A stretch of DNA of 64,000 nt, from assembly GCA_951406725.2 (NCBI GenBank), contig OX597815.1, forward strand, positions 62,310,001 to 62,374,000. The letters run 5' to 3'. This stretch comes from Octopus vulgaris (taxonomy: Eukaryota). Made by a program: the position numbers and the translations under genes. Below are positions 1,407 to 2,372 of the stretch, one piece after another; position 1 is the first letter of the stretch, and the number at the start of each line of letters is the position of its first letter. Under the pieces are notes generated by a model. The model was not told the origin of the DNA. It was given only the letters and a program-made list of their open reading frames with translations, and searched no databases.

Positions 1407-2372
1407 ATACAAGATAAGAAAATAGAGAAATACATCTAAATCAAATATCAATTACCAGATAATACTCAATCGCATACTTTATTAAACCACCATATAAGAG
1501 ACTGTGGGGTTACACATAAAAAATGACACTTTAAAAAATTAGTATGAAGTAATATAATGTACTATTGACTATGTATATTTGCATCTAGGTACTAATATGT
1601 GTATGTTTATTATCACAATATTAAGTTGAAAAACTGATACATTGAATGTGGAACATATATATGTTTACTAATTTATATTATTTATTTACATCATTATGTA
1701 TATGTATATTTTTATATGTATAGGTGTGTGAGTATATACACTCATATGTATATGCATATGTTGTATTATGGGTATGTACCCACACTCATGTGGGTATATA
1801 TGTAGACCGATTTATATTACATAATCTCCGAAGAGGCCTTAGGATATTTTTATAAATGTCTCATTTATATCTATATATTGACCTACCATAAAAGGCTAAT
1901 ATTGGTAAAATGAGACATACTTATCTACATGGCCGAAACAGCTGTAAGATGTAATCTATACTTATATTTATATTTACTTATATTTATATTCTCTTTTTTA
2001 TATATATTCTACTTATTATACAACATTACTCTTTTATGTACACTTTTTTATGTACATTCCTTTATGTACACTGATTTGTTCTGCTTTTTTATGCGTAACC
2101 CCACAGTCTCTAATATGGTGGTTTAATAAAGTATGTGATTGAGTATTATCTGGTAATTGATATTTGATTTAGGTGTATTTCTCCATTTTCTTATCTTGTA
2201 TTAGTAATTTGTGGTAAAGCATTTTACCTCTGCCCATACAATACAGTAAATGAATTGATTGCATCGCAATCAGTAACATTTATGTATTAACTTTGTTGGG
2301 TACTTCACTAGCAGTATTTTGGATATATGTTATCCCATGGAGGGTTGCATTTACAACCCCTATCTCAATTTG
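1407..2372 (+). mobile_element. Non-coding fold-back element (PLE pseudo-LTR/retrozyme-like) between (TA)n tracts
   Basis: Inverted arms 1407-1523 and 2085-2201 (~117 bp, about 5 mismatches) enclose an HHR motif; (TA)n on both sides; no credible ORF. Confidence 0.7.
1816..1955 (+). ncRNA. Type I hammerhead ribozyme with long stem-II insertion
   Basis: Stem I ATTACATaATCT pairs with AGATGTAAT; core CCGAAGA (1828-1834); stem II GGCC(1835)...GGCC(1931); GAAA-C-AGCT-GTA with palindromic stem III; predicted cleavage after 1946. Confidence 0.75.

Follow-up and report, generated by a model that had tools for sequence, protein, structure and literature searches.

Insertions of Penelope-like elements (PLEs) commonly combine an inverted, 5′-truncated copy, a tail at one end only, usually of 30-40 nt, and a bias towards (TA)n targets (PMC8557442). 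In Octopus vulgaris, 6.83% of the genome consists of PLEs, which form 190 consensus families (PMC13282606). Among the Hydra-clade PLEs, a (TA)n target is found in 26 of 27 families (PMC8557442; Craig et al. 2021), and a type I hammerhead lies near the 3′ end, in some elements with a 4-bp stem II directly after the core. Stem III of the ACAG/CTGT type, with an A at the cut, is present in 3 of the 26 Hydra hammerhead rows of that survey's table. The minimal hammerheads of metazoan PLEs are also of type I, with a proximal helix I of 4-5 bp, a G10.1-C11.1 pair and a palindromic helix III; a dimer mechanism has been proposed for them, and their cleavage in vitro is slow (PMC4209133; Cervera and de la Pena 2014). 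In Poseidon PAc of Anolis, the optional tail is flanked by two internal RT start sites with structured RNA, the target is AT-rich, and the hammerhead, located within the pseudo-LTR, cleaves only with the protein of the element (PMC11167929; Frangieh et al. 2024).

The locus described here occupies positions 1407-2372 of the window, the whole 64,000-nt stretch of O. vulgaris DNA that was analysed. It was compared with the Hydra-clade elements Penelope-1_NV, Hydra-1_Amil, Penelope-1_SK, Penelope-13_HM and Hydra-1_Obim (PMC8557442). It shares with this clade the (TA)n target, the type I hammerhead near the 3′ end, the 4-bp stem II and the stem III described above, and with Penelope-13_HM the inverted 5′-truncated copy. 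Hydra-clade PLEs look closest to the octopus element; the combination of a (TA)n target and a 3′ hammerhead is not diagnostic, since (TA)n is also the target of Naiad and Neptune. All 34 hammerhead rows of the survey's table have U at core position 4, whereas the octopus element has C, and loop II, of 3-10 nt in the 26 Hydra rows and 35 nt at most in the whole table, measures 55-92 nt in the octopus element. The features listed above for the minimal metazoan hammerheads are likewise shared, although dimer action and low activity are only predicted for the octopus element. In the minimal forms, by contrast, helix II has 6-8 bp and is closed by a short loop, a base is usually bulged out after A9, and the core variant reported is U3-A8, not C4 (PMC4209133). 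In Poseidon the tail is short and the ORF starts inside the ribozyme (PMC11167929), whereas the 171-nt tail of the octopus element begins about 250 nt past the cut site.

The octopus Naiads (Naiad_Obim, Naiad_Ovul and Naiad_Omin) resemble the locus in their (TA)n target, inverted copy with tail and long AT-rich 3′ UTR, but canonical hammerheads are absent from them according to the survey (PMC8557442). Their 3′ ends differ from that of the octopus element, as judged by motif search and by eye, and the 3′ end of Hydra-1_Obim, compared by eye, is a different sequence. Identity with these published octopus PLEs was rejected on these grounds, in a comparison in which line breaks could hide a motif. 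Outside the PLEs, the discontinuous hammerhead of the mammalian Clec2 mRNA is also a natural hammerhead with its halves split by a long insert; unlike the octopus ribozyme, it is of type III, with 150-1500 nt inserted in helix I, a canonical core and a location in the 3′ UTR of a single-copy gene (PMC6155905, PMC6765202).

We regard positions 1407-2372 as probably representing one old insertion of an abundant PLE family into a (TA)n microsatellite, a judgement that takes in the steps proposed below for its insertion and for its ribozyme. Membership in the PLEs as such is very likely. The window copy itself is a dead fragment with a single ribozyme, an ordinary decayed retroelement (Table 1).

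Ribozyme anatomy of the window copy

Motif coordinates, descriptor search and computed folding all give the type I arrangement of three helices about the core, and each part of this topology was found where the initial annotation had put it. Stem I consists of 4 bp, a 3-nt bulge and 5 bp. The core agrees with the canonical CUGANGA / GAAA / NUH at 12 of 13 conserved positions, the exception being the claimed change of U4 to C, at 1829. Every other core position is intact, as are the A15.1-U16.1 and G10.1-C11.1 pairs. Since U4C is a natural variant known from a viroid, the ribozyme counts as a variant hammerhead and not as a non-member. Our placement of the cut at 1946/1947 presumes the usual hammerhead numbering.

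The core halves are 100 nt apart in the window copy. The large insertion of 92 nt that had been described as capping stem II does fold further, forming in computation a single long irregular helix with an 11-bp ATGTCTCATTT/AAATGAGACAT stem (-27.8 kcal/mol, z -4.18, with none of 200 shuffles equally stable). Two further strong hairpins lie just 5′ of the ribozyme at 1700-1815 (-37.6 kcal/mol over 116 nt), and positions 1777-1806 vary jointly among subfamilies.

Table 1. Features of the insertion and its hammerhead, in window positions
Feature	Position	Strand	Remarks
(TA)n target tract, left flank	1338..1406		preceded by a (CT)n tract
Inverted 5′-truncated copy of the element's 3′ end	1407..1523	-	reverse complement of 2085-2201, without tail; 1407-1409 blend into the TA tract
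Direct 5′-truncated body, AT-rich 3′ region / pseudo-LTR of the PLE family (very likely)	1524..2201	+	
Perfect short hairpin 5′ of the ribozyme	1777..1796	+	several positions differ among subfamilies
Hammerhead stem I, 5′ strand	1816..1827	+	distal 1816-1820, bulge 1821-1823, proximal 1824-1827
Core C3-C4-G5-A6-A7-G8-A9 (CCGAAGA)	1828..1834	+	C at 1829 in place of U4
Stem II, 5′ strand (GGCC)	1835..1838	+	pair probability 0.95; 0.6 in long context
Structured stem II extension, 92 nt	1839..1930	+	basal 11-bp helix 1856-1866/1908-1918; apex variable
Stem II, 3′ strand (GGCC), then core G12-A13-A14-A15.1 (GAAA)	1931..1934, 1935..1938	+	
Palindromic stem III ACAGCTGT	1938..1945	+	monomer: 2 bp plus loop; dimer: 8-bp intermolecular helix
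GUA triplet	1944..1946	+	cut predicted between 1946 and 1947 from hammerhead numbering
Stem I, 3′ strand	1947..1955	+	
Direct arm	2085..2201	+	AATAAA at 2125-2130; first 3′ end TTG/TA at 2198-2201
Optional 171-nt tail	2202..2372	+	at one end only; long hairpins; second 3′ end TTG/TA at 2372
(TA)n-type target tract, right flank	2373..2410		

The family in public sequencing runs

The 1407-2372 stretch or part of it was contained in 20 of the 24 sequencing runs listed (11 studies, five organism labels); in small runs, of 40-121 million letters, 33-42% of the element's words are present. Contigs of four runs (X1, X3, X5 and X7, the last possibly of RNA, with three organism labels in all) were aligned to 1524-2372, and 2054, 1922, 1203 and 100 contigs aligned in the four. 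Positions 1951-2010 were skipped as a repeat in this alignment, and the gaps in cover at 1698-1726 and 1959-1987 are likewise skipped repeats. Summed depths reach about one million in the large runs, which is not a copy number but is more than a single locus can yield. The stretch 1524-2372 belongs to a high-copy repeat family.

In all four runs, loose contig ends before 1536 (in the large runs they have a median length of 20-24 letters, in X7 of 82) show that the family extends upstream, and the window copy is therefore 5′-truncated at about 1524. This copy alone has the 1523/1524 junction, where the family contigs carry different sequence. At the other end, loose ends on (TA)n behind 2200-2201 were found in three of the four runs (18 contigs in X3, 10 in X5 and one in X7). 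Many family copies thus stop at about 2201, as the inverted arm does; the direct copy of the window extends to 2372. A loose end behind 2201 in X3 continues, after about 12 TA units, with letters resembling the reverse-complement end of another copy, which hints at tail-to-tail pairs sharing one TA tract. Behind 2327, one X7 contig enters other sequence, a nested insertion in one copy that we take to resemble a mariner terminal repeat.

The table of variants has 92 rows, 40 of which were listed. Among the 29 of these that were checked the lowest peak share was 38%, and the other 11 are majority rows. The listed rows seem to be those of highest share, so that the remaining rows should be minority letters. 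No variant letter falls in the core, in stems II and III or in stem I up to 1950 among the 40 listed. From this we take C to be the prevailing letter at 1829 in all four runs. With 52 variant rows and 304 loose ends outside the listing, minority copies with U4 or another core variant (10-38%) may still occur. Both C4 and the long stem II look like traits of the family; neither a short-loop form nor a joint skipping the whole insert is present among the three joints listed.

The base of the insert is kept and its apex is variable among subfamilies. We observed a form of 92 nt (the window copy), one of about 78 nt in which 20 letters stand in place of 1870-1903 (loose ends in X1, X3 and X7, read by eye) and one of 55 nt that has lost 1874-1911 (a joint in X1 and X3), all of them retaining ATGTCTC/GAGACAT. 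Moreover, 1730-1950 is covered, with two gaps, by an X7 contig that has 36 differences, and the insert is therefore present in a diverged subfamily. Of the five variable places listed within the insert, two are G-U wobbles, two are unpaired and one is the pair beside the apical loop.

Folding and possible cleavage

The dimer-type stem III put forward in the initial annotation agrees with the computed folds: its pair probability is 0.02 in the monomer and 0.93-1.0 in the dimer (cofold). The 8-bp palindrome duplex is worth -11.1 kcal/mol, and the double hammerhead reaches -73.5 kcal/mol versus -66.0 for two monomers. Such an unstable palindromic stem III, completed in the dimer, is typical of the minimal dimer-type hammerheads; their short stem-loop II is replaced here by 92 nt. 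The proximal stem I is barely paired, with probabilities of at most 0.02 in the monomer, at most 0.07 in the dimer and 0.00 in an 849-nt context. A shifted register beats it by about 4 kcal/mol in both monomer and dimer, and stem II falls to 0.6 in the 849-nt context.

As a sequence, the putative pseudo-LTR carries a type I hammerhead with a palindromic stem III, C4 and a stem II prolonged by a long helical domain. In an active parent element, a pair of pseudo-LTRs in one tandem transcript, or else two RNAs, would join via the 8-bp palindrome into a double hammerhead. This would cut slowly after 1946, probably helped by the protein of the element, and trim the precursor RNA. The insert may be tolerated by closing on itself, which would leave a stem II of 4 bp followed by an internal loop at the usual place of loop II. 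A slow, dimer-assisted and probably protein-assisted ribozyme that trims the tandem precursor RNA of an active parent is our best reading, with the chances of any cleavage about evenly balanced.

The same PLE element could instead carry its hammerhead as a catalytically dead relic: the family would transpose with no need of cleavage and have fixed U4C and the insert, and its helices would persist through descent or because a protein binds them. This would fit a PLE origin equally, and we hold it to be possible, if on the unlikely side. The weak proximal stem I, seen in all three folding contexts, counts against ribozyme function, as does U4C, which considerably reduces activity in vitro; a viroid carrying U4C is nevertheless infectious (PMC3088659). 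The Poseidon ribozyme is dispensable for insertion in vitro, where its mutants still insert, and RNA-seq reads ending at the cut site are absent according to the same account (PMC11167929). Similarly, Naiads have spread without canonical hammerheads (PMC8557442).

The variation within the family bears on both sides of this question. The 11 polymorphic places listed in 1728-1950 all lie outside the 40-nt ribozyme frame, which taken alone is not significant (p 0.11). For the frame together with the 11-bp helix (62 nt) the count is again 0/11, with p 0.025, but the helix was chosen post hoc and the sites are linked, so that this conservation is suggestive only. Deletions at the apex of a hairpin can arise at the DNA level without selection, and those seen in the insert can be explained in this way if the ribozyme is dead. 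Among the rows listed there is no compensatory change in stems I-III, in contigs that are short and unphased and with 1951-2010 masked. A dead relic is less easily reconciled with the intact state of the remaining core positions and of the A15.1-U16.1 and G10.1-C11.1 pairs. In addition, a variant in X1 (a loose end of two contigs, aligned by eye) has 8 differences in the 18 letters of 1805-1822, yet leaves 1823-1831, including C4, unchanged; it differs at two of the five distal stem I positions, the partner strand being masked. Finally, a joint in two of the four runs (X1 and X7) resumes at 1824, the first base of the proximal stem I, and in X3 and X5 a change at the end of this proximal stem may account for the loose ends before 1825.

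Beyond the slow trimming ribozyme that we prefer, it is conceivable, though doubtful, that the abundant PLE family has an active hammerhead in which a fixed C4 is coupled with a conserved helical domain on stem II, the domain acting as a built-in regulator, for example as an RT docking site that would switch cleavage on. Hammerheads of this kind would fall outside the published PLE descriptors and may be common in elements said to be without ribozymes.

Insertion and mobilisation

The locus had been described as a non-autonomous, PLE-mobilised retroelement forming a small, self-contained fold-back unit. The link to the PLEs stands, based on the inverted copy, the one-sided tail, the (TA)n target and the terminal position of the hammerhead. 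A 5′ truncation with an adjacent inverted copy is seen in the arms and the family contigs. The tail is optional, since copies end at 2200-2201 in three of the four runs and the inverted arm is without 2202-2372; its 171 nt, as against the usual 30-40 nt, count against the PLE reading. Also counted against it is that no PLE ORF, whether of the telomerase-like RT or the GIY-YIG type, was linked to the family within the window copy and the upstream letters listed. These number 30 at most; two reading frames run open through them but reach a stop by about 1551, which is too short to call an ORF end. In agreement with the initial annotation, no ORF of at least 100 aa in the window's ORF list overlaps 1407-2372. 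A 32-aa frame in the tail (2277-2372) had no match among 1.84 billion representatives, a weak test at that length.

In its DNA anatomy, the putative PLE insertion is a direct, 5′-truncated copy of the family's 3′ end with the 171-nt tail, joined on its 5′ side to an inverted truncated copy without the tail. By analogy with Poseidon biochemistry, a GIY-YIG endonuclease would have nicked the TA tract, and the RT would have started cDNA at two internal RNA sites, at about 2201 and 2372, giving rise to the one-sided tail. The two 3′ ends of the family (2198-2201 and 2370-2374) are both TTG/TA, which suggests priming on the (TA)n target via a short UA match.

Structure is also predicted for the tail, whose 100-nt windows give z -1.9 to -2.8; the hairpins are a candidate RT-binding or initiation structure. 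At the tail pair G2257-C2271, A replaces G and T replaces C with shares of 0.30/0.25, 0.19/0.48, 0.14/0.38 and 0.59/0.54 at 2257/2271 in the four runs. This is a possible compensatory change in unphased contigs; positions 2272 and 2273 of the same hairpin also vary, with no visible partner change.

An alternative to the insertion of a PLE copy is a short non-autonomous, retrozyme-like unit, excised by its ribozyme, perhaps circularised, and moved in trans by PLE proteins. Non-autonomous PLEs are known (PMC8557442), and animal retrozymes have been proposed to stem from PLE pseudo-LTRs (bioRxiv 10.64898/2026.07.22.740005). The octopus element has in common with the metazoan non-LTR retrozymes a type I hammerhead, low GC and a stretch without ORF (PMC7229834), and the climb in depth near the 5′ edge of the ribozyme in all four runs is a weak hint in the same direction. 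Retrozymes, however, are tandem repeats of 150-450 bp with canonical ribozymes (PMC7229834), whereas the window holds a single copy with one ribozyme and no tandem array of such units each with a hammerhead. None of the three joints listed goes back, as a unit of less than 850 nt would need, bearing in mind that contigs show presence and not absence. Together with the upstream extension of the family in all four runs, this makes such a unit improbable.

For the PLE insertion that we favour, the inverted arms are readily placed. They comprise 117 nt each (1407-1523 and 2085-2201) and agree in 112 of 117 letters. Three letters (2095, 2102 and 2115) are common to both arms and differ from nearly all family contigs; the arms must therefore come from one template, since which they have diverged at five places. 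The inverted arm arises with the 5′ truncation in PLE insertions, and the fold-back is thus a by-product of insertion and not a property of the family. The 117-bp inverted arms inside a (TA)n site that had been reported are present, as are both (TA)n flanks, but they are not the termini, the right arm stopping 171 nt before the right end of the element. The notion of a small, self-contained, non-autonomous fold-back element finds no support, with copies extending upstream in all four runs and ending at 2200-2201 on (TA)n in three. The long inverted repeat and the TA flanks would also suit a MITE or fold-back DNA transposon that targets TA, has the 117-bp repeats as its inverted termini and carries the hammerhead as a passenger. 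This is very improbable, as the right arm is not terminal, the 1523/1524 junction is private to the window copy, inverted repeats at both termini are not common to the copies, and the 5′ truncation and optional tail indicate reverse transcription. The family contigs also suggest that in most copies the left arm is missing or the inversion lies elsewhere.

Detection by descriptors and models

A relaxed descriptor, with the C4 and long loop II proposed in the initial annotation, asked for Watson-Crick pairing over 4 bp or more in stems I and II, accepted either U or C at position 4 and allowed at most 150 nt across stem II. It gave one match in the 64-kb window, the 1816-1955 motif, and none in 150 dinucleotide-shuffled windows. 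Chance assembly of short motifs in AT-rich DNA, which the short stems, the one core deviation and the lack of an Rfam hammerhead match might suggest, is hardly credible when none of the 150 shuffled windows matches even without the palindrome requirement, the insert folds with z -4.18 and the motif sits where PLEs carry hammerheads.

No hammerhead was found among the 49 Rfam matches at E<=10 in window positions 1000-3000, and at the gathering score Rfam gave no match across the whole window. Such a result is expected because of the 92-nt insert, and it bears out the suspicion that standard models would overlook the ribozyme. The one miRNA model of Rfam that matched the insert (E 7.5) reflects a generic hairpin. 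The insert was also considered as a SECIS element, a twister ribozyme or a group I intron, all rejected for want of an Rfam match and of the motif by eye, and as a spliceosomal intron, rejected because GT...AG ends are absent and no such joint is among those listed.

Neither a second copy of the element nor another hammerhead was found in the 64-kb window by descriptor and sequence comparison. The hammerhead pattern had no matches in viral contigs and none in prokaryotic genome contigs. Five metagenome matches to the ribozyme pattern, all without the upstream core, and 16 viral matches to a two-block pattern, all without a stem I of more than 1 bp, were taken as chance.

The hammerhead descriptors of the PLE survey span 7-17 nt between core halves and 35-50 nt for half cores (PMC8557442). 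A search of the open literature turned up no PLE hammerhead whose stem II bears a long arm or whose core has C4. The family may well be catalogued already in Repbase, Dfam or the Zenodo octopus repeat library, with its ribozyme unnoticed.

Other features of the window

The host is rich in simple repeats, and several other mobile elements were noted in the window. A broken LINE with endonuclease- and RT-like frames lies at 21294-23733 (+) and is presumably of the RTE type; the PF00078-bearing animal relatives of its last frame show at most 65% identity. On the minus strand, broken PIF1-like helicase frames at 57609-58990, identified by eye, are in our view probably a Helitron remnant, and broken protease, RT and integrase frames at 34980-37859, also identified by eye, we take to be Ty3/gypsy-like. 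Fragments with a zinc knuckle and a restriction-like endonuclease, recognised by eye at 52923-54017 (-) and 6291-6836 (+), presumably resemble R4/Dong-type non-LTR elements. An abundant SINE family, with about 80% identity between copies (19475-19874, 20635-21271, 59327-59584, 61657-62023 and others), resembles what we assume to be Octopus SINEs. Finally, an open frame at 38019-38468 (-) has a signal-peptide-like start and is possibly a host exon.

Implications

The locus exposes a concrete blind spot of the Rfam models and of the published descriptors, and ribozyme counts in repeat-rich animal genomes may accordingly be too low. Hammerheads occur in nearly all PLEs, yet they cleave slowly, and the only in vitro system can do without them. 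A family retaining its ribozyme frame alongside a core change that slows it and a large structured arm would offer a direct test of whether it is cleavage or structure that is under selection.
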